From Picochlorum sp. SENEW3 (lineage: Eukaryota): a DNA stretch of 64,000 bases. The stretch spans positions 1,116,001 through 1,180,000 of the forward strand of contig CP120453.1 in assembly GCA_034226945.1 (NCBI GenBank), read 5' to 3'. Position numbers and translations under genes: made by a program. The notes under the pieces were generated by a model. That model was not told the DNA's origin, did no database searches, and saw only the letters and a program-made list of their open reading frames with translations. Shown here in pieces: positions 1,166-21,854 of this stretch (positions within the stretch are counted from its first letter, which is position 1; the number at the start of each line of letters is the position of its first letter).

Positions 1166-2770
1166 ATGGCGTCTACACCGACAGGGCATGATATGGGTCA
1201 CCACCCTGCTGCAGCTGCAGCAGCTGCGTCTGGGATCCCTGGAGCGGCACCGCATCCCCATAACAGCGCGGATTTCTTTCTATCGAACTATAGGTTGGGG
1301 AAGACGCTTGGTATAGGGTCGTTTGGGAAGGTCAAGGTTGCGGAGCATATCCTCACTGGGAATAAAGTGGCAATTAAGATTTTGAATAGGAAGAAGATTA
1401 AGCAGATGGATATGGAGGAGAAGGTGAAGCGAGAGATTAAGATTTTGCGGTTGTTTATGCATCCTCATATAATTCGATTGTATGAAGTGATCGAGACGCC
1501 GACGGATATATACGTGATTATGGAATATGTCCGGAGTGGGGAGCTGTTTGATTATATTGTGGAGAAGGGTAGGCTTGTGGAGGATGAAGCTCGGCATTTC
1601 TTTCAGCAAATTATATCTGGAGTAGAGTATTGCCATAGACATATGGTGGTGCATAGAGATTTAAAGCCAGAGAATTTGCTTTTGGATTCGAGGGCAAATG
1701 TGAAGATTGCAGATTTTGGGTTGTCCAATGTCATGCATGATGGGCACTTTTTAAAGACATCGTGTGGGTCTCCCAATTATGCGGCGCCGGAAGTTATTTC
1801 AGGGAGGTTGTATGCTGGGCCTGAGGTTGATGTGTGGTCGTGTGGGGTGATTTTGTATGCTTTGTTGTGTGGTTCCCTGCCGTTTGATGATGAGAACATT
1901 CCCAATTTGTTCAAAAAGATTAAAGGAGGGATTTACACCTTGCCCAGTCATTTGTCTCCTGGAGCTCGGGATCTTATACCGAGGATGCTTTTGGTGGATC
2001 CGTTGAAACGGATAACGATTCCTGAGATTCGGCAGCATCCGTGGTTTACCATCCATCTGCCTCGGTATATTGCCGTGATGCAGGCTGGGCCATCGTCATC
2101 TGTTGGAGCCATGGTGGATACGGATTTGGTCAGGGAAGTTGAAAGGTTGGGATTCGAACGGCAGTTTATTATTGAAAGTTTGAGATCGAGACAACAGAAT
2201 AAAGCAACAGTGGCGTACCACTTGTTGGCTGATAATAGACACCGCATGCCATCGTCTGCATATTTGAAAGAGGAAATGACAGAAGGTAGAGATATTGGAT
2301 CGTACCCGTCTGCCGGGATGGGATCGCAGCGTAGCTCTGGAAGTCTTCAGCCAGCGCCTCGGATTGTCGTGGAGAGGAAATGGAGGCTTGGTATGAGAAC
2401 GAGGTGCCATCCTGGTCACTTGGTTCAAGAACTGTGCCGGGTCATGCGTGCCAATAATGTATCGTACAAGATGGGCAAGACGCCGTATAATGTCAAGTGT
2501 AGAGTCGAAATGTACAGTAGTGACTCAAAGAATGATGCTGACACGTCCATGATGGTGGATGACGAGACGAGTGAGACCAGTATGAGGGACATGGATGATG
2601 GGACAGCAGTGCCCCCCACGAGGAATGCGCAAATTGAGGTGATCAAGTTTGAGTTTCAAGTGTATCGGACGAGGGAAGGAGAGTATACATTAGACGTTCA
2701 GAGACTTGAAGGTAGTTTGTTGATGTTTCTCTCATTATCATCAGAATTGATGAGCGCATTGCAGTGTTGA
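1166..2770 (+). CDS. SnRK1: SNF1-related kinase catalytic alpha subunit (SnRK1/AMPK)
   Basis: LGIGSFGKV, HRDLKPEN, DFG, FLKTSCGSPNYAAPE; UBA and KA1-like C-terminus; first ATG at 1166; intronless CDS. Confidence 0.97.
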   Translation: MASTPTGHDMGHHPAAAAAAASGIPGAAPHPHNSADFFLSNYRLGKTLGIGSFGKVKVAEHILTGNKVAIKILNRKKIKQMDMEEKVKREIKILRLFMHPHIIRLYEVIETPTDIYVIMEYVRSGELFDYIVEKGRLVEDEARHFFQQIISGVEYCHRHMVVHRDLKPENLLLDSRANVKIADFGLSNVMHDGHFLKTSCGSPNYAAPEVISGRLYAGPEVDVWSCGVILYALLCGSLPFDDENIPNLFKKIKGGIYTLPSHLSPGARDLIPRMLLVDPLKRITIPEIRQHPWFTIHLPRYIAVMQAGPSSSVGAMVDTDLVREVERLGFERQFIIESLRSRQQNKATVAYHLLADNRHRMPSSAYLKEEMTEGRDIGSYPSAGMGSQRSSGSLQPAPRIVVERKWRLGMRTRCHPGHLVQELCRVMRANNVSYKMGKTPYNVKCRVEMYSSDSKNDADTSMMVDDETSETSMRDMDDGTAVPPTRNAQIEVIKFEFQVYRTREGEYTLDVQRLEGSLLMFLSLSSELMSALQC

Positions 2771-2782
2771 CATGATTGACTG

Positions 2783-3754
2783 TTACACATAAATATTTGT
2801 TGTAAAATTGTGTGCCAGCGAATCCTCTGCTGATTCTGACAGTGCTTTGATGTGCTCCATCCTCTTTACTCTCTTCTTGCAGCATTTTTTATACTTTTTA
2901 TTAGAGCCACAAGGACACGTGGTCTTCGCTTTTGATGATTTTTTTGCCCTTGAGGGCATGCTCTCTGGCATTACAAAGCACACATTACATGGAGCAGCAT
3001 GATTGGTATCCTGAGGATGGCGTACACGGATTTCAACTCGAATATAATGGGATTCTTCTTGAATATCATCTACCTCATCGTGCTGACGATCAGCACCGCT
3101 GTGTTGTTTTGGAGGAGCAGCGCCATGGGCATGTGTCCCTGCTGATGCCAAGATTTCATCATTCACACGAGGGCAACAGGATAGAGGTTTTCCCGTAGCT
3201 CTATCCCTCACAGAATTATAATGATTTCCATCGTGATAAGCTATATGAATCATTCGTGCGCTCTCTTCGGGAAAATTCAGTATCGTCCAAGACGCCTGAA
3301 AGGACTGAAAAATCCGTACATTGACATGAAACAGGGTTGAGAATGCTTGTATTTCGATATTTCCGCCCCATACGTCTTCTTCAGACATTCGCTCTATATA
3401 GTCCTCAAACGACTCATCATCCTCAATAAAACAACTAAAAAATTCTTCACCAGCAGAAATTTCCTGCACAATCTTCTTCCTGAGGTCAACATGGTCCTCA
3501 ACTCCTCCTGCATCTTCCAAACACTCCAACTGATCATACAATGATCGAAACAGACAGTTCCCATCAGCAGGAACCTCATGCACATAAGCTCCTATTTGAT
3601 GCAACTGCTGCTGAACATTTACATTTGTAGACTGCTGCTGCTGCTGCTGCTGCTGTCCACCACCATGACCCTGCTGTGCTTTCTTTTTGCTATTCTGCTG
3701 CTGTTTGCTCTTTTTGTTCTTCTTGCCCTTCTTCTTGCTATGATGTCCTGCCAT
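2783..3754 (-). CDS. OTU-domain deubiquitinase (OTUD3-like) with C-terminal SEC-C motif
   Basis: VPADGNCLFRS, WGGNIE, YHDGNHYNSV; CPCGSNKKYKKCC. Confidence 0.9.
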   Translation of the reverse strand: MAGHHSKKKGKKNKKSKQQQNSKKKAQQGHGGGQQQQQQQQSTNVNVQQQLHQIGAYVHEVPADGNCLFRSLYDQLECLEDAGGVEDHVDLRKKIVQEISAGEEFFSCFIEDDESFEDYIERMSEEDVWGGNIEIQAFSTLFHVNVRIFQSFQASWTILNFPEESARMIHIAYHDGNHYNSVRDRATGKPLSCCPRVNDEILASAGTHAHGAAPPKQHSGADRQHDEVDDIQEESHYIRVEIRVRHPQDTNHAAPCNVCFVMPESMPSRAKKSSKAKTTCPCGSNKKYKKCCKKRVKRMEHIKALSESAEDSLAHNFTTNIYV

Positions 3755-4307: not shown

Positions 4308-5795
4308 ATGGCTGGAACTGGAACGCTGTCGCCTCCCCTTGCGACGGCGTTGGGAACGTATTTTGTATGGACGTGTCTCTTTTTGCTGGGTCACCTGAGG
4401 GACTTTTTACGCAACATGTTCTTCAGCCGGACCAAGAAGAAGGGATATGCACCCATCAGGCAGGACTATGAGGATTTTTACACCCGTCGAATGTACTATA
4501 GGGTTCATGATTGTTGGAATAGACCTATTTGTAGTGCTCCAACAAACTGGATTGATGTTATGGAGCGGTCAGAGGTGAATGGCCAGAATCCCATCAATGT
4601 GACAGGGAGAACGATTCGATGTTTGAATTTAGGATCGTATAATTATCTAGGTTTTGCTGCGCATGATGCATATTGCACGCCACGAGTGAATGCCTGTATG
4701 AAGGCATATGGGTGGGGTCCTTGTAGCAGTCGTGGCGATGCTGGGACGCTTCCTGTGCATGTGCAGCTGGAGAAGGAGATGGCAGAGTATTTGGGAAAGG
4801 AAGATTGCATTACATGTGGGATGGGATTTGCGACGAATTCGACCTTTATTCCAGTGTTGGCTGAGAAGGGGACATTGTTCCTCTCTGATGCTTTGAACCA
4901 TGCATCTATTGTGTCGGGAGTGAGAGGGAGCGGAGCCAAAGTAAAAGTGTTCAGTCATAATGAACCAGAGCAGCTCGAGGCAATTTTGAGAGCTGTTATC
5001 GCTGAGGGGCAGCCACGGACAGGTCGTCCATGGAAGAAGATTATCATTATTATTGAAGGGATATATTCCATGGAGGGTGAGATGGCCAAACTGAAGGAGA
5101 TTGTGGAGATTAAGAAGAAATACAAAGCATATCTGTATCTTGATGAGGCGCACAGTATTGGAGCGCTCGGAGCGACAGGGCGTGGCGTGTGTGAGGCATT
5201 CGGAGTGGATTCAAAAGATGTGGATATTATGATGGGGACATTCACCAAGAGTTTTGGATCGTGTGGTGGCTATATTGCTGGAGATAAGAAGTTAATAGAT
5301 TACTTGAGGGCACATTGTGCTGCTCATTTGTATTCTACGGCCATGTCGGGTCCTGCCGTAGAGATGGTCTTGTCAGCCCTCCGGGTTGTGAGAGGTATGG
5401 ATGGAACGACATCTGGCAAGGATAAGATTGAGAGGCTCAGGAAGAATTCGAATTATTTCAGAGGAAAGTTGTTAGAGATGGGATTGAATGTTCTTGGTGA
5501 TTGGGACTCTCCAGTCATGCCGATAATGATGTTTAAACCTACATCGCTCGTGGCCTGTAGCAGGGAGATGCTGAAGCGTGGTGTAGCAGTGGTGGTGGTT
5601 GGGTTCCCTGCGACGCCATTGTTGACAGCAAGGGTGAGGGTCTGTATATCTGCATGTCATACAAAAGAGGACTTGGATTTCGCTCTAGATATGTTCAGAG
5701 ATGTGGGAAATCTTCTGGGCATTGCATATCGATCCAAAGACAATTTGAAGCACCTGACAGCAGCAAGAAATTCAGGTGTTGAGCTCATGCTTTGA
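4308..5795 (+). CDS. LCB2: Serine palmitoyltransferase subunit 2
   Basis: NLGSYNYLGF, DEAHSIGA, GTFTKSFG PLP-lysine motif, GFPATP. Confidence 0.95.
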   Translation: MAGTGTLSPPLATALGTYFVWTCLFLLGHLRDFLRNMFFSRTKKKGYAPIRQDYEDFYTRRMYYRVHDCWNRPICSAPTNWIDVMERSEVNGQNPINVTGRTIRCLNLGSYNYLGFAAHDAYCTPRVNACMKAYGWGPCSSRGDAGTLPVHVQLEKEMAEYLGKEDCITCGMGFATNSTFIPVLAEKGTLFLSDALNHASIVSGVRGSGAKVKVFSHNEPEQLEAILRAVIAEGQPRTGRPWKKIIIIIEGIYSMEGEMAKLKEIVEIKKKYKAYLYLDEAHSIGALGATGRGVCEAFGVDSKDVDIMMGTFTKSFGSCGGYIAGDKKLIDYLRAHCAAHLYSTAMSGPAVEMVLSALRVVRGMDGTTSGKDKIERLRKNSNYFRGKLLEMGLNVLGDWDSPVMPIMMFKPTSLVACSREMLKRGVAVVVVGFPATPLLTARVRVCISACHTKEDLDFALDMFRDVGNLLGIAYRSKDNLKHLTAARNSGVELML

Positions 5796-5878
5796 TCGGG
5801 AAATAAACGGAATCTATTTTACGAAAGAATTTTTTTAAAAAAGTGTATTCATTTTTTGTTTCGAGACCATGGTAACTT

Positions 5879-8800
5879 TTAGTGCACGAGGTCCTTGTGC
5901 TGTTTCGTTCTGGTGAGGTCCTTGAGGTTGGCTGTTGCAGCTTCAATGTCCTTGGCATTGAAAATGGCCCTCACGACAGCGACTCCATCAGCACCACTCT
6001 CTTGTAAAGTGCGAGATGCGTTTGTATCATCTATACCTCCAATTGCAACAACAGGGATGGAAACGTGCTCTTTAATCTGCCTGACACCATGGGTTCCTAT
6101 GACTGAGGAGTCTTTCGTTATTGTGGGGTAGGTTGCCCCACATCCAACATAATCTGCTCCATCACGCTGCGCTTTGAGAGCCAATTCTACCGTTTTGCAC
6201 GACACCCCTACAATTTTATCCTGTCCAATCATTTTGCGGACATGTGCTGCAGGAATATCACCCTGTCCTACATGAACTCCACATGCATCTGCAGCTATTG
6301 CCACATCAACCCTATCATTCACGATAACCTTGACACCTGCAGGTCTGCAGAGCCGTACTATTTTGGACACAATACGGGTCAATCTACCTCCTTCAGATAC
6401 CTTATCGCGTATCTGAATGACTGTAGCACCTCCAGCGATGACAGATTGCATTGTTTGAAGAATTTCTTCATCTGATCGATCTTCTGATGTTGTGCTTGGG
6501 CTTGTCACCGCATAAAGAGAAACATCAACGGGATTGGGAACCCGAGCCGTCTGTGGGGATCTAGGCCAGTCATATTGACCGTATGACAGGTTCATTGGCT
6601 TTTGATCCCCCTGTCCTATATTCAATCCTGAGGATCGTTCCATGGCCCTCCAGACAAACTTCTTGGCCTTGTCAACAGCATGGAGGACATTCTCCCCCTG
6701 TGATACGTATGATGCAATGGCAGAAGCTAATGAGCAACCTGTACCATGATTATTTGTAGCATTCAGAAGAGGTGTGGAAAATTCGACAAATTCTTTCCCA
6801 TCAAACAATACGTCAATGGCATTGGATGAACCGTCCTGCAAATGGCCTCCTTTAATGAGAACATATCTAGGACCAAACTTGTACAGTTTCTCCGCGGCCA
6901 GTTTCATCGAATCCACAGAATCAATCACAATATTGTCATCGAGGAGATGTATTGCTTCAGGAATATTCGGAGTCACGACCGTGGCCACGGGGAACAAGTG
7001 CTCCTTCATGGCATCAATGATGCCTTGCTCTGCCAGAGATGACCCAGAGCTCGATGCCAAAACCGGATCCAAAACGATCGGCGGCCTTGATGGCATTCGT
7101 TTCACAGCCTCGGAGACTGCTATCACATTATCAACCGATCCAAGCATTCCAATTTTAATACAGTCCGCTCCGATATCAGTGTAGACATATCTGATCTGGT
7201 CTTGGACAATGTCTGAGGGAATGTTGTATATTGATTCCACACCAACTGTATTTTGCACGGTGATGGCAGCAACAGCATTTGTGGCAAATGAACCACACGC
7301 TGTGCATGTCTTGATGTCGGCCTGCAAACCAGCACCTCCTCCAGAATCACTTCCAGAGATGAGCATCACTCTGGGAACATGGCTGACTGACGCAGTCTCT
7401 TCTCGCTCTGAGCACCAACTCTCTGCAGATACTACCCCATATATTTCATCCCAAGAATTCGTCTGATATAAAACCTTTCCTGAACCATCACTATTCGAGT
7501 TATAGACAAAGTCTTCCAGCGGGAGAACAGGTATTCCTGCTATCCTCAGTACTGACATGAGTGTTTGGTTCTCTCCAAAGATGATTCCCATGGATGCCTC
7601 CATCAAAGAGCCAATGTCCGTGACCGAATCTCCCACATATATTGAAAAATCGCTTTCTTTCTGCAATTGAATCATAATTTTGGCTTTATCTGTCGCATTC
7701 TCGCATTGCGTGTGCACCAAACCTGTACTCCTATCACCACCATCAAATTCCATCCTGTTGGCTATGATGTGGACGACACCAGGTCGTTCTTCCATATCAA
7801 CCGATGCGAGATCTGAGACTACTTCTACCGCTATACCGTGTCTTTGGAATACCTTTTCAATCATCTCCGATGACCAATTCACGGACACGACTGCTGCATG
7901 CATTCCACAGTCAAGAGCATGCTGCAGTGTTTCAGGGCACCTAGGCTGCATGGCAATACCGTTGGCAGACTTCTGCAGCGATTCAGGAGTGGCTCCTGAT
8001 AAGAGGGACGATTCAAAACAAACCTTATTCCTGTAGCTATCAAATTTCGACACTTCCATCAGGAACTCGGCCAACCATTCTTGTCCCTTCACAGGAGAGG
8101 CTCCCAATCCCTCAGGAACCAATCGCCCCAAAAGATCCTCACGCTCAGACACATACTCACTCAAAAGTTTCTTATATAGCAATTCTTTATGTTGTCTCTC
8201 TTCGGGACCAACAGAATCACCATGATATGCTGCATCAACAATTTTCGAGATTGTGTCCCCCTGGGAAGAAGTTTCATCAAAATCAACCACCAAAATGCCA
8301 CGACCCTTGTTTATTTTCGGCTCAGTGTTTGCTCCAAAGAACTGGAGCTCCTTCTTCATCGCATAGGAGTAATGTTGATGGCAACGATCTGCACAGACAA
8401 GGCAAAACAGTTGTAACCACCTCCAACTGACGGACAGCCAAATCACAATTTTGATTCACACCATGCTTTGTTGCAGGTAATACTGCTATATATTGATTTT
8501 TTATCAATATATGGTGTGTATCACGCGGCAAAAAGACCGAATGGTGCCTCAGCCAGTGGCTGCTTGGCCGAGTGCCTTGTTGACATGTCAACGCCTTGAC
8601 GACCATTCGCAGCATAATTACGACATTATAAAGTGCAATTATCCACAATATAATTTATTGTAATTTTTTAATGCCAGTACCGTACCTTTTGTGATAGCAT
8701 CATGCGATGCTACATCCAACACAGATTCTGCCATTGAAACACACCTCAGAAAATGGTCAGAGCTGTATTCGAGTATCCATTTTCCATAGGGATGGTCTTC

Positions 8801-9466
8801 AGGATCTCTTCCGTACTTCTCAAAAGCTATAGTCTTGATTTTTCTCGCAACCTCTGCGTAGAGCCTGAAGCAGGGCAACAAGGAGGAGGCAACATGAACT
8901 GCCCCATCATTTCCTGATGGATTTGAAGCAACACGGGCCAAAAATTCTGTATATAACGATGTCGCCCACATAATATCATCATGTGAGAGATTTTCAAGGT
9001 CAATAAAGGTACCATGGATGTTGTCTAGTTCAGTTTCAACAGTTTCCAATAGATGAGAGATGTCAGCACATATGCCTGTTTTGTGGTCATCTGCAATCAT
9101 TGGGTCAACGGCAGCGAGTTGGAGCATTGTCCTAATGGCTTCACGAAATACACTTAAATAGTATACATCTTGAGACAAGTACTTTTCGAATCGTTCTCTT
9201 GGCAATGTTCCGTCTGCAATGCCCCTGACAAATGGGTTGAACAAGCTGGCATAATACAGATGTTGATTCTCTTCCCAAAGCACGCGTGTTGCATTCGACG
9301 TGGCCTTTGTCACCTGAACAATCTTTGTTGCACTTTGGGACACACTAATTGCGTGCCTTTTGCACAAAGGGGGAGTCGCTTTAGAGAAGAAGCAACCCTT
9401 GCTTATTGAGCCCACCCTACCTGGCATGAAAGGGATACTGCAGAGACTGCAGGGAAGCGATTTCAT
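5879..9466 (-). CDS. Four-domain thiamine enzyme: TenA + HAD phosphatase (TH2-like) fused to HMP(-P) kinase ThiD + thiamine-phosphate synthase ThiE (TH1-like); exons 9466-8686 and 8388-5879, ~1096 aa
   Basis: TenA: YLSQDVYYL, LLPCFRLY, PYGKWI; HAD: DFDET, YVGDSVTD; ThiD: GSDSGGGAGLQAD, HGTGC; ThiE: QIRDK, NDRVD, GVHVGQGD, AIGGI. A GT..AG intron at 8685-8389 joins the two ORFs in phase 1 (AAA G|AT) and restores the TenA last helix (AMKKELQFF). Confidence 0.88.
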
Positions 9467-9566
9467 ACTTTTTGATCGATAATTATATAAAATATAGTAA
9501 ATGCAGCTTCCATAATGACCGCATTCTCGAGGCGATGACAATTCTAGAACACGAGGAATGGCTATG

Positions 9567-9616
9567 ATTTGTCACAATATGGCACTATTATTTGTCACAA
9601 ATGATGATTTGTCACA
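9567..9616. promoter_or_regulatory. Three copies of ATTTGTCACA in the divergent promoter of the thiamine genes
   Basis: Exact 10-mers at 9567-9576, 9590-9599, 9607-9616. Confidence 0.55.
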
Positions 9617-9816
9617 TTGTGATCCGGGGCAACCGTCAAATGCTCCAACATCCAGCCTCCAGTCCATCTCAATCTATTATTAAATACTTTGGATTTTGTA
9701 TCAGAGTGCGTACTTTGTACCAGATGTCATTCAACATGCCTGCATGCACATGCTTGACCTGACTGTGTATATATGCTCAGCCTGACCCTCGTTTTCTACC
9801 CAATGTAGGATATTGA

Positions 9817-10875
<1,059 letters not shown>

Positions 10876-11093
10876 TCAGCATCTGCAATGATGAAAATGC
10901 CATGATGCAATGTATTTTCTCAAGTTTTGTAACCCATACACATCTACATGGAGATACACACAAGCTCATTTTTTCCTCGGGACTCGCGAATCCACCTTTC
11001 AATCGTCGTCTGCATATCCAAGCACATCTGGATGCTTCGCTAATGTGACCCGAACGTGATCCATTGATTCTCATCCCTAGCTCATCACATGTG

Positions 11094-11260
11094 GGTGTGC
11101 CCTTGGTCATCAAAAAGAGACACAGATGACGGCACTTCGAACACCTGAAAATGAAGTATTGTATCTCAATTGAGGACTTCTTGATGGGGCTGTATCCGGG
11201 TGAAATTGTCCGTGGGACAATCATTGAGTGGTAGCTCAACCAGAACCCAGATAGGATACA
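11094..11260. ncRNA. Candidate structured RNA element downstream of THI4
   Basis: Hairpin at 11094-11145 and a three-way junction at 11191-11260 seen by eye; no family match recognised. Confidence 0.3.
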
Positions 11261-11430
11261 CTGCCGACGCAATAGAGCACTTGCACATTGTATCACCGGG
11301 ATATATAATCTAAATAACAATGATCTACGAAATCAACGACTCAGGACAATAATATATATAAACTGCGCCAGCGTATGTTGCAATATACCCTCAAATCCAC
11401 ACTGCCAAACGAATTGATTCGTCTGATATC

Positions 11431-11475
11431 AGATCTAGATCTCAATCGATCGAGATCGAGATCGAGATCGAAATC
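11431..11475. repeat. GATC-rich tandem repeat (GATCGA)x4
   Basis: agatctagatctcaatcgatcgagatcgagatcgagatcgaaatc. Confidence 0.8.
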
Positions 11476-11802
11476 TACGTGTACACGTGACATGTCATCA
11501 AACCTAGAGTTCGTATTTCGTCATCGCCACTGAATAGATGGATACCTGGACGACCCATCCTCCACATTATAATTCACGCAACTAGTATTCGATGCAAGAT
11601 TGCCAAGCTTGACGAAGGGTGTACTGTGATTGGTCTCGATTTACTGACACGTCGCACTTTACAACGCGTGGTAAGGGCAGCCGTCTGTCCAATATCAATT
11701 GCAGAAAAACATTATAGCACCTATTGGTGCATATACTATTTCTATTGATACGAATAAAAGCAACAAACTTTCTCACTTTGCGTGTGACCGGCGCTCACAA
11801 AA

Positions 11803-20582: not shown

Positions 20583-21854
20583 TCATAATAATACTAGTAT
20601 ATCGTTGTACACGTGTGTGTGGGCATTTGCACCCCATGTAAAGTCAATGTGCTCATATCCAGCTATTTTCTTTGAAAATACTACAGTCTCATGGGGGAGG
20701 CTGTGAATGAGCTCCTGTACATCCATGGGGTCTGCTAATTTATCATGTGTTCCATAAAACATTGCGATTGGTGGTGCCTGTATGGTGTCCAGATCATAGC
20801 ATGGTGCAGTAACACTGCCATACTCTCTCTGATTGCAATCCATCATTGCCCCGGATGGCGTTGTGCATACATCACCGTAATCGAATTTACAAAACTGGTA
20901 TCCTGCAGTCTCCTCTGCACGCCTGACCTGTTGAGCCCAATGTCTCATATTCTTCACGGATGTGCCTGATGGAGCAAATGCAAGATAAACTGGAAGCCTC
21001 TTCACGTCCACATTATTTGGATTGAATCCACAGATTGCTGTCAGAATGGATATACATGACTCTGGAGATAACGTGCAGAATTCACCGAAAAGATCACTCA
21101 TATCTTGCTGGCTTGGAAGAAATTCTTCCTCGCCAAGAATGCTGACCAGTGTGTCTGCATGCATTCTGGCCAGGAATTGTAATGGTACACTGGACACATA
21201 TTTTGTGTATACTGCGGGAGCAAGAGCAATAAATATTGATATTTTATCTCTAAGCTGACGGTTGGAAGAGAATGCTGCGAATGACAGCGTTGTTCCCTGA
21301 GAATGGGCAATCAGTGCCACCTTTTGTTCTGGGCACAACGAGTCTGCATTCTTTCCAATGACATACTCTACCACGGCAGGCAAATCGTACGCAGCCATAT
21401 CATCAAATGTAAAGTCCCAGAACGCTTTGGAATCTGGCAAAAAGCCAGTATGATTCCTACTAAATGCATTGCCTCGAGAATTTGTCAGCCATGTGTCATA
21501 GCTTGCATCTGCCAGAATAAAGCCTAAACTCTGCGACTTACTGTTCACCACCCATGTCGCACTACTATCTAACAAACCATGCTGCAGAATGACTGGCTTT
21601 CTGCACCTCCTGTGAGCACCAGCAGTAGGTTGAGGAAGAATTCTGTACACTCCCAGGACATAGCCATCTCGTGTCTCGATGAAATGCTCCTCCACGGGAT
21701 ACCCTGCCCGCTCAACCAAATACCTCATATCCGCATGTCGATATTCTACGGCCAACGCCTGTTGCTGAGCATTCTGCAAGGCAACAACACCTGCTTGGGT
21801 TGAAAGAAGCAAAAAAAACAACCCAAGCAGGATACTGCCTTTGAGTATCCCCAT
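20583..21854 (-). CDS. Secreted acid/triacylglycerol lipase (AB-hydrolase lipase family)
   Basis: Signal peptide, TRDGYVL, LQHGL, NSRGN, AHSQG nucleophile, HIDF. Confidence 0.92.
   Translation of the reverse strand: MGILKGSILLGLFFLLLSTQAGVVALQNAQQQALAVEYRHADMRYLVERAGYPVEEHFIETRDGYVLGVYRILPQPTAGAHRRCRKPVILQHGLLDSSATWVVNSKSQSLGFILADASYDTWLTNSRGNAFSRNHTGFLPDSKAFWDFTFDDMAAYDLPAVVEYVIGKNADSLCPEQKVALIAHSQGTTLSFAAFSSNRQLRDKISIFIALAPAVYTKYVSSVPLQFLARMHADTLVSILGEEEFLPSQQDMSDLFGEFCTLSPESCISILTAICGFNPNNVDVKRLPVYLAFAPSGTSVKNMRHWAQQVRRAEETAGYQFCKFDYGDVCTTPSGAMMDCNQREYGSVTAPCYDLDTIQAPPIAMFYGTHDKLADPMDVQELIHSLPHETVVFSKKIAGYEHIDFTWGANAHTHVYNDILVLL

Follow-up and report, generated by a model that had tools for sequence, protein, structure and literature searches.

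Does a thiamine-biosynthesis gene of Picochlorum sp. SENEW3 choose by splicing between a working and a truncated product? The question is raised by a 297-nt intron in a minus-strand gene of contig CP120453.1, within a 64-kb window to which all coordinates in this text refer. The gene encodes a fusion of the TenA, HAD, ThiD and ThiE domains, and an earlier note, made from the sequence alone, had proposed that the unusually long intron at the TenA/HAD junction carries two multibranch folds and may act as a non-canonical splicing switch. The analysis indicates that the gene can make either a working or a truncated message; as splicing control this is of a known kind, in a variant specific to the lineage. 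New here is a second, used donor inside the 297-nt intron, from which 73 nt are spliced out. With a probability of about 0.5, the intron is composite, in that two 5′ splice sites (the far donor at 8685 and the near donor at 8461) compete for one 3′ splice site and a helix masks the near one. Literature searches by title and abstract (Picochlorum with thiamine or riboswitch; alternative splicing or intron retention) retrieved no publication on this intron.

The segment 8389-8685 is a genuine spliceosomal intron that is needed for the protein. It starts with GT at 8685-8684 and ends with AG at 8390-8389, and joining of 9466-8686 to 8388-5879 yields exactly P0001, a 1096-aa NCBI entry named 'Thiamine biosynthetic bifunctional enzyme TH1 [Picochlorum sp. 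SENEW3]', which is also the best protein match of exon 2 (100% identity). The resulting junction, K260|D261, aligned without gaps with the orthologues from Coccomyxa, Gonium and Chlamydomonas (alignment A1), and the residues Y267, A270, M271, E274, F277 and F278 just past it were invariant in this alignment. The PDB sequences of solved B. subtilis TenA structures also align through the junction, as far as ELQFFG versus EYQFWG, and therefore exon 2 supplies the last TenA helix; the Pfam TenA match in P0001 does not cross the junction (profile positions 15-180 of 210). The productive junction is present in a protein from the MMETSP transcriptome of P. oklahomense (P0019) and in P0024, a protein of 1096 aa predicted from a JGI contig of 5,096 nt that is taken to be intron-less. 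A metagenome relative, L001 (45% identical in the HAD part), has a phase-1 intron in the same codon; it is 84 nt long (L001:3415-3498) and unrelated in sequence to the 297-nt intron (alignment versus shuffles, fraction 0.90).

The intron is also unusually long, as had been noted. It is about three times as long as the mean reported for the genus, which is 88, 101 and 133 bp in three genomes according to a table of PMC6141220 whose headers lie outside the passage that holds the values. Its retention ends TenA early, again as predicted, because the frame runs into the TAA at 8641-8639 after 15 extra codons. An introner or MITE-type insertion would be expected to occur in many genomic copies, with terminal repeats and a target duplication; within the 64-kb window, the search for other copies of the intron gave just 11-13-nt matches (E>=0.23), and one 23-mer occurs once. 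A separate idea, that the 73-nt core intron is a duplicate of the end of exon 1, was discarded, because the alignment was no better than with shuffles (fraction 0.22).

Four sequencing runs (X2, X7, X11 and X19) were mapped as contigs on 7600-9700. X2 and X7 behaved as DNA, X19 spanned 8751-9080 alone, and splicing was informed by X11 only. X11 stems from a relative that is about 97% identical; its cover stops near 9462, with none beyond 9516, and it was therefore read as RNA. A 59-nt contig of X11 joins 8462 to 8388 and thus skips 73 nt with CT..AC ends on the plus strand, i.e. GT..AG in the sense direction. The depth of this contig was 41.9, compared with 13.9 for the unspliced contig. A further contig was continuous from 8462 to 8715 with a depth of 18.5, and the depth of exon 1 was 18.3. 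The end at 8715 equals 8685+30, as expected for a branch at the far donor with k=31; the unspliced contig at 8360-8490 had no matching branch, and nothing was concluded from this. The near donor and the far donor match the donor consensus about equally when compared by eye, and the UUACAAC of the core intron is a putative branch site by comparison with the consensus.

Use of the near donor was also indicated by a second species. A gene model of P. renovo (P0018) carries the residues VSRATKH exactly at the position of the potential micro-exon, and because this insert corresponds to 8482-8462, the model uses the same 73-nt intron. The P. renovo annotation was made with BRAKER2 and RNA-seq, as described in the relevant passage of PMC6811619. 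The isoform made by the 73-nt splice alone (isoform c) keeps 224 nt and stops at codon 276, and its read-through tail GTVLALKNYNKLYCG is identical in P0020, a relative known from a called open reading frame (ORF). The stop codon lies 177 nt upstream of the junction at 8462, which exceeds the approximately 50 nt typical of alternative splicing coupled to nonsense-mediated decay; the second junction was seen in RNA in one run of one study (X11), and indirectly in the P. renovo model. The proposed switch thus stood as far as an alternative 73-nt splice from the donor at 8461 is concerned (X11 contigs, implied also by P0018), whereas the sensing of thiamine metabolites that it was meant to serve found no support; regulation by such metabolites is possible.

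Folding in silico did not yield uniform results for the parts of the intron. The inverted repeats were recovered by a repeat search at the positions that had been given for them, and the inner hairpins could be recognized in the sequence as well as in local folds. They comprise CGAATGGT/ACCATTCG at 8538-8545/8602-8609 in domain 1, the 13-nt arms of domain 2 at 8452-8464/8511-8523, and the perfect 10-bp ATATATTGAT/ATCAATATAT at 8488-8497/8503-8512, which is the longest helix. The whole intron was more stable than its shuffled controls in the sense direction (-94 kcal/mol, z -4.29, none of 200 shuffles as stable); the antisense value was z -3.66. Domain 2 (z -5.97) is the sole statistically exceptional fold of the intron. 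In a scan of the whole 64 kb by 7,992 composition-adjusted 72-nt windows, just two loci were more folded than this domain, and it wraps the near donor together with the possible micro-exon. On a coarser 150-nt grid, two intron windows ranked 17th and 18th of 393. The predicted cost of opening was 4.1-8.1 kcal/mol for the near donor and 1.7-6.0 kcal/mol for the far donor. As the near donor was the costlier one in all 16 combinations of context and temperature, domain 2 was read as a mask on the near donor.

Under the composite-intron reading, a 224-nt 5′ part, built from an AU-rich leader and the two folded domains, precedes a core intron of 73 nt with a donor of its own. Splicing from the far site gives the full enzyme. 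Splicing from the near site keeps the 224 nt and leads to a stop after 15 codons, and this unproductive message would probably be a target of nonsense-mediated decay. In a genome with introns of about 100 nt, the near donor lies at the usual distance and the far donor is about three times as far away. The domain-2 helix is proposed to hide the near donor so that the far donor can win and the productive splice can compete. The balance between productive and unproductive mRNA would then depend on the tightness of hiding, and the unproductive isoform would be the default whenever masking fails.

Relatives were used to ask how well the structure is kept. At the nucleotide level, the only close relative was X11, at about 97% identity; searches of genome contigs and viral contigs gave no DNA of relatives, and the closest of 26 loci in a metagenome scan were L001 (45% identical) and L002 (42%). 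A more distant comparison was made through protein. The protein collection was searched with the intron's own 110-aa frame, which led to P0012, one ORF-called relative among 4 candidates, and this comparison reveals only changes that alter the frame (visible changes). The P0012 lineage is 91% identical in exon 2; the match covers 237 nt, with 58 of 79 residues identical and no indels. Visible changes affected 5 of 81 paired bases and, among unpaired bases, 13 of 73 (Fisher p 0.04). The hairpin 8548-8572 spans two of them and the AU hairpin one, all three in loops; the outer stem has two in its 5′ arm, both C->U, with G.U pairs retained. In X11, 8-11 of the 297 intron sites differ from the window (2.7-3.7%), compared with 25 of 500 third codon positions (5.0%), and 24 of 32 listed exonic differences are synonymous. 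The lower divergence of the intron suggests constraint and is not decisive; Poisson values for this comparison depend on an assumed share of synonymous sites.

Several results weigh against the composite-intron reading. The 73-nt joint was found in one run, whose status as RNA is a guess of the tool combined with our own reasoning from its cover, and the 8686-to-8388 joint was absent from the contigs of all four runs on 7600-9700; the productive splice is documented by proteins and gene models, not by the contigs of these runs. The fold of domain 1 is at chance level. The multibranch folds do not appear in the minimum free energy (MFE) structure of the whole intron, which is formed without the two closing helices. 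Depending on the flanks supplied, the probability of the outer stem ranged from 0.00 to 0.70 and that of P1 from 0.14 to 0.82, and in one folding context the near donor paired elsewhere. In P0012, the GCAG/CUGC hairpin is broken twice without compensation, and in two relatives the closing stem of domain 1 has an uncompensated G.G mismatch (at 8544 in X11; H24Q in P0012). Visible changes of P0012 were found at 18 of 154 positions in the structured part, compared with 5 of 73 in the core intron, and no true compensatory double changes were visible, the DNA relatives being only about 97% identical. In L001, the whole structured part is missing, and its plain 84-nt intron shows that the module is dispensable for the gene. 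The module is lineage-specific and confined to part of one genus. The two multibranch folds of the earlier note thus survived in part: the stems are present and domain 2 is an outlier, but domain 1 is not and the folds are absent from the whole-intron MFE structure. The expected conservation had a similarly mixed outcome, with mostly loop changes and no indels in the 91% lineage on the one hand, and two broken stems and a relative devoid of the module on the other.

The same results can be explained by an ordinary long intron with incidental hairpins, e.g. the remains of an old insertion, in which the near donor is a cryptic site that yields splicing noise of no regulatory value. The short intron of L001 at the same position, the chance-level domain 1, the two stems broken in relatives, the variation of the predictions with context and the existence of other loci in the window that fold equally well or better would all be expected in this case. 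Yet the near-donor isoform is not rare in X11, as shown by the depth of its joint and by a retained part that is as deep as exon 1. Furthermore, donor, frame and length are kept without indels in the 91% identical lineage, the changes avoid paired bases, and a fold among the top three outliers lies exactly on the near donor. We regard an ordinary intron as possible but unlikely.

The open frame of the 224-nt part raised a different possibility, namely that one locus encodes two proteins. The 224-nt part would then be an alternative first coding exon, used from an internal promoter or after re-initiation, and the product would be an 887-aa HAD-ThiD-ThiE protein that lacks TenA and has a different, basic N-terminus. 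Among 20,000 shuffles, 0.5% had an in-phase ATG-ORF of 51 or more codons and 1.2% an open frame of 64 or more, ATG and frame are kept without an indel in P0012 and P0029, and the 51-codon peptide has 7 Lys/Arg and one acidic residue. The depth of exon 2 in X11 (29) is higher than that of exon 1. However, the peptide is 69% identical to P0012 (35/51), whereas a neighbouring stretch of 28 codons in the same frame, non-coding but for its last four codons (exon 2, other frame), is 82% identical (23/28). As the peptide is no better conserved than its neighbour, there is no sign of selection at the protein level. In addition, the product would bear an orphan last TenA helix, none of the 21 cluster members listed is an 887-aa protein, no transcription start is known at the 224-nt part, L001 has no room for such an exon, and re-initiation after an ORF of 275 codons would be unusual. 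A two-protein locus would agree with the annotation of P. costavermella, in which two adjoining 'TH1' genes neighbour THI1: a passage of PMC6141220 describes a 'TH1 tandem duplicate pair' beside THI1, with a shared bidirectional promoter and up-regulation at higher temperature. The pair may instead be the two halves of the fusion gene, split by annotation at this intron. On balance, the two-protein explanation appears improbable.

Splicing control by riboswitches that bind thiamine pyrophosphate (TPP) is exemplified by NMT1 of Neurospora and by THI4 and THIC of Chlamydomonas, and green algae are the textbook case of TPP riboswitches that act via splicing. Its occurrence in thiamine genes of green algae is also stated in the abstract of PMC9544697. 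The intron analyzed here is not a TPP riboswitch. No Rfam family matched the whole 64-kb window at the gathering score, and the TPP model (RF00059) had no match at E<=10 in 8200-8900 or in 5600-11600, a region that includes the neighbouring THI4. The CUGAG at 8552-8548, noticed earlier as the only reminder of the TPP aptamer, proved to be just that and is part of a stem; on reading the intron sequence for the CUGAGA junction and the pyrophosphate-sensor helix, no second motif was found. Kinship with the TPP riboswitch or any other Rfam family was therefore dropped.

Two compact folds inside an intron could also mean that a small RNA, either a small nucleolar RNA (snoRNA) or a microRNA-like (miRNA-like) product, is freed from the structured part after splicing, and algal small RNAs are poorly covered by Rfam. 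The three Rfam matches at E<=10 were spurious, however: two miRNA families on the AU hairpin (E 5.8 and 8.1) and one box C/D family at 8346-8363, which is in exon 2 (E 9.7). ARAGORN found no tRNA-like gene, no C/D or H/ACA box arrangement was seen by eye, and no hairpin reaches 20 bp, the longest helix of 10 bp being too short for a miRNA precursor. An intronic non-coding RNA, which the earlier note had considered, thus received no snoRNA or tRNA signal and is extremely improbable.

A new sensor RNA with an aptamer unrelated to the TPP class was considered as well. Domains 1 and 2 would bind a metabolite of the thiamine pathway, or respond to temperature, and thereby expose or hide the near donor. 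The thiamine gene context and the architecture (structured intron, two donors, stop in the long form) fit such a switch, the unproductive form looks abundant in X11, and P. renovo, for which the near-donor model was obtained, was grown with 296 nM thiamine, as given in the culture passage of PMC6811619. The arm 8513-8523 is moreover predicted to pair with either the near donor or an element of exon 1 at 8735-8745. In its most specific form, the segment 8452-8611 would be a non-TPP sensor of a metabolite or a physical signal that flips this arm between the near donor and the exon-1 element as a decoy. Against this, no aptamer family was detected with Rfam, domain 1 as the candidate three-way junction folds no better than expected by chance and has a damaged closing stem in two relatives, only part of one genus possesses the feature, and the predicted stem probabilities showed no sharp change between 20 and 42 C. 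The productive form was likewise assembled from a culture transcriptome (P0019). A sensor RNA is very unlikely, both in general and in the form of the flipping arm. If it were true, it would switch a fusion gene between productive and unproductive splicing and would extend the eukaryotic riboswitch-like elements beyond the TPP class for the first time.

The exon-1 element itself, which reads GGUGUGUUUCA on the RNA, is a near repeat of the near-donor sequence 8452-8462 and is complementary to the arm 8513-8523. The predicted pairing probability was 0.85 in one context and 0.10-0.21 in the two others that contain the element. The pairing may be due to chance, or the element may be a decoy.

The composite intron shares features with several known systems. 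With RF00059-controlled splicing it has in common a thiamine-biosynthesis gene, a structured intron, the choice between two splice sites and a premature stop in one isoform. It differs in that no TPP aptamer was detected by covariance model at the thresholds tried, the CUGAG pentamer being all that is shared, that no ligand is known, and that only part of one genus has it; the adjacent THI4 lacks the aptamer as well. Resemblance to stem-masked 5′ splice sites (tau exon 10 and the TSL2 of SMN2 exon 7) lies in a donor within a helix, differing isoforms, and a higher predicted opening cost of the near donor than of its competitor. The tau and SMN2 sites are vertebrate cassette exons with mutational proof, whereas in Picochlorum the masking is only a prediction, and in some contexts the helix does not dominate. 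As in long yeast introns that are shortened by structure, an intron of about three times the mean length has a compact middle, which would reduce the distance between the far donor and the branch site; in Picochlorum this shortening is hypothetical, and the global MFE structure omits the two closing helices. The stop 177 nt upstream of a junction seen in RNA is typical of poison exons and alternative donors coupled to decay. Unlike efficiently degraded isoforms of this type, the long form looks abundant in the one X11 run, and its decay is presumed here.

A thiamine gene and its THI4 neighbour thus both lack the aptamer, and yet the outline logic of the gene is the same: there are two donors, the long form has a stop, and the switch point is structured. 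If the isoform ratio is regulated, an industrially used alga would provide a second route, independent of the TPP riboswitch, by which splicing controls vitamin B1 synthesis. Without such regulation, annotation would still profit from the case: there are three kinds of gene model for the locus (a fusion, a model with a micro-exon and possibly 'tandem duplicates'), a divergence that the competing donor explains.

Table 1. Features of the fusion gene, its intron and the neighbouring gene. For folds, the number of shuffled sequences that were as stable is given in brackets.
Feature	Position	Strand	Basis
Exon 1: N-terminal extension and most of TenA	8686..9466	-	Pfam PF03070, profile 15-177 of 210
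Full GT..AG intron, 297 nt, phase 1; removal gives the productive mRNA (isoform a)	8389..8685	-	splice product = P0001
Distal (far) 5′ splice site AAG|GUACGG	8680..8688	-	splice product = P0001
Intron 5′ leader, AU-rich, little structure, in-frame TAA 8641-8639	8612..8685	-	fold z -1.03 (32/200)
ATG of 51-codon frame, in phase via the 73-nt splice into exon 2 (887-aa ORF2)	8613..8615	-	shuffles; P0012, P0029
Domain 1: three-way junction closed by CGAAUGGU/ACCAUUCG	8536..8611	-	fold z -2.15 (7/200); scan -2.35
Domain 2: outer stem 8457-8464/8511-8518 plus extension, around the perfect 10-bp AU hairpin and the micro-exon	8452..8523	-	fold z -5.97 (0/200)
Potential micro-exon of 21 nt after an AG at 8484-8483; inclusion lengthens the protein by 7 in-frame residues (isoform b)	8462..8482	-	P0018 model
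Proximal (near) 5′ splice site AUG|GUGUGA, in the 3′ arm of the domain-2 outer stem	8456..8464	-	X11 contig 8462-8388
Core intron, 73 nt, shares the 3′ splice site; branch-point-like UUACAAC 8416-8410	8389..8461	-	X11 joint; fold z +0.49 (141/200)
Exon 2: last TenA helix, HAD-like domain, ThiD, ThiE, stop codon	5879..8388	-	Pfam PF08543 and PF02581; alignment A1
THI4/THI1 (thiazole synthase), divergent neighbour	9856..10875	+	Pfam PF01946, E 1.4e-103

The four-domain fusion in one polypeptide is not new, as the protein was already annotated as P0001, and fusions of TenA, HAD-like, ThiD and ThiE domains also occur in Coccomyxa, Gonium and Chlamydomonas incerta. The same four domains make up plant TH2 (TenA and HAD phosphatase) and TH1 (ThiD-ThiE), which unlike the Picochlorum protein are separate polypeptides. 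The ATG of the fusion gene is 389 nt away from THI4/THI1, in which Pfam placed the Thi4 domain at 9856-10872. THI4 is likewise the divergent neighbour of the fusion gene in L001, and this arrangement is reported for the genus Picochlorum in a passage of PMC6141220.

The position of the start codon showed some variation. The X11 contig ends at 9462 and then continues into adapter sequence (region 9425-9466). The proteins of P. oklahomense and P. renovo begin at the Met that is residue 14 of the SENEW3 protein, and P0024 and the NCBI models begin at 9466. The true start codon could vary between strains, or be the second Met. The P. renovo model P0018 lacks a ThiD stretch that is found in P0001 and has an unrelated C-terminus; it probably contains false introns.

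A few observations concern other sequences. L002, a HAD-ThiD-ThiE relative, has no TenA-like ORF of at least 40 aa in the 1.5 kb upstream of the match (2000-3700 examined), and a CPBP-like ORF is on the opposite strand; L002 may be a TenA-less version of the gene. Two loci of the window fold better than domain 2, namely 21777-21848 and 11401-11472 (residual z -4.74 and -4.41, minus strand). The frames of the latter read as alternating DL and RS repeats, and it may be a simple palindromic repeat. The contigs of run X2 are 100% identical to the window at a depth of 300-450 and branch into unrelated sequence at 7813, 9480 and 9624, which may reflect haplotype or structural variation in the source organism.

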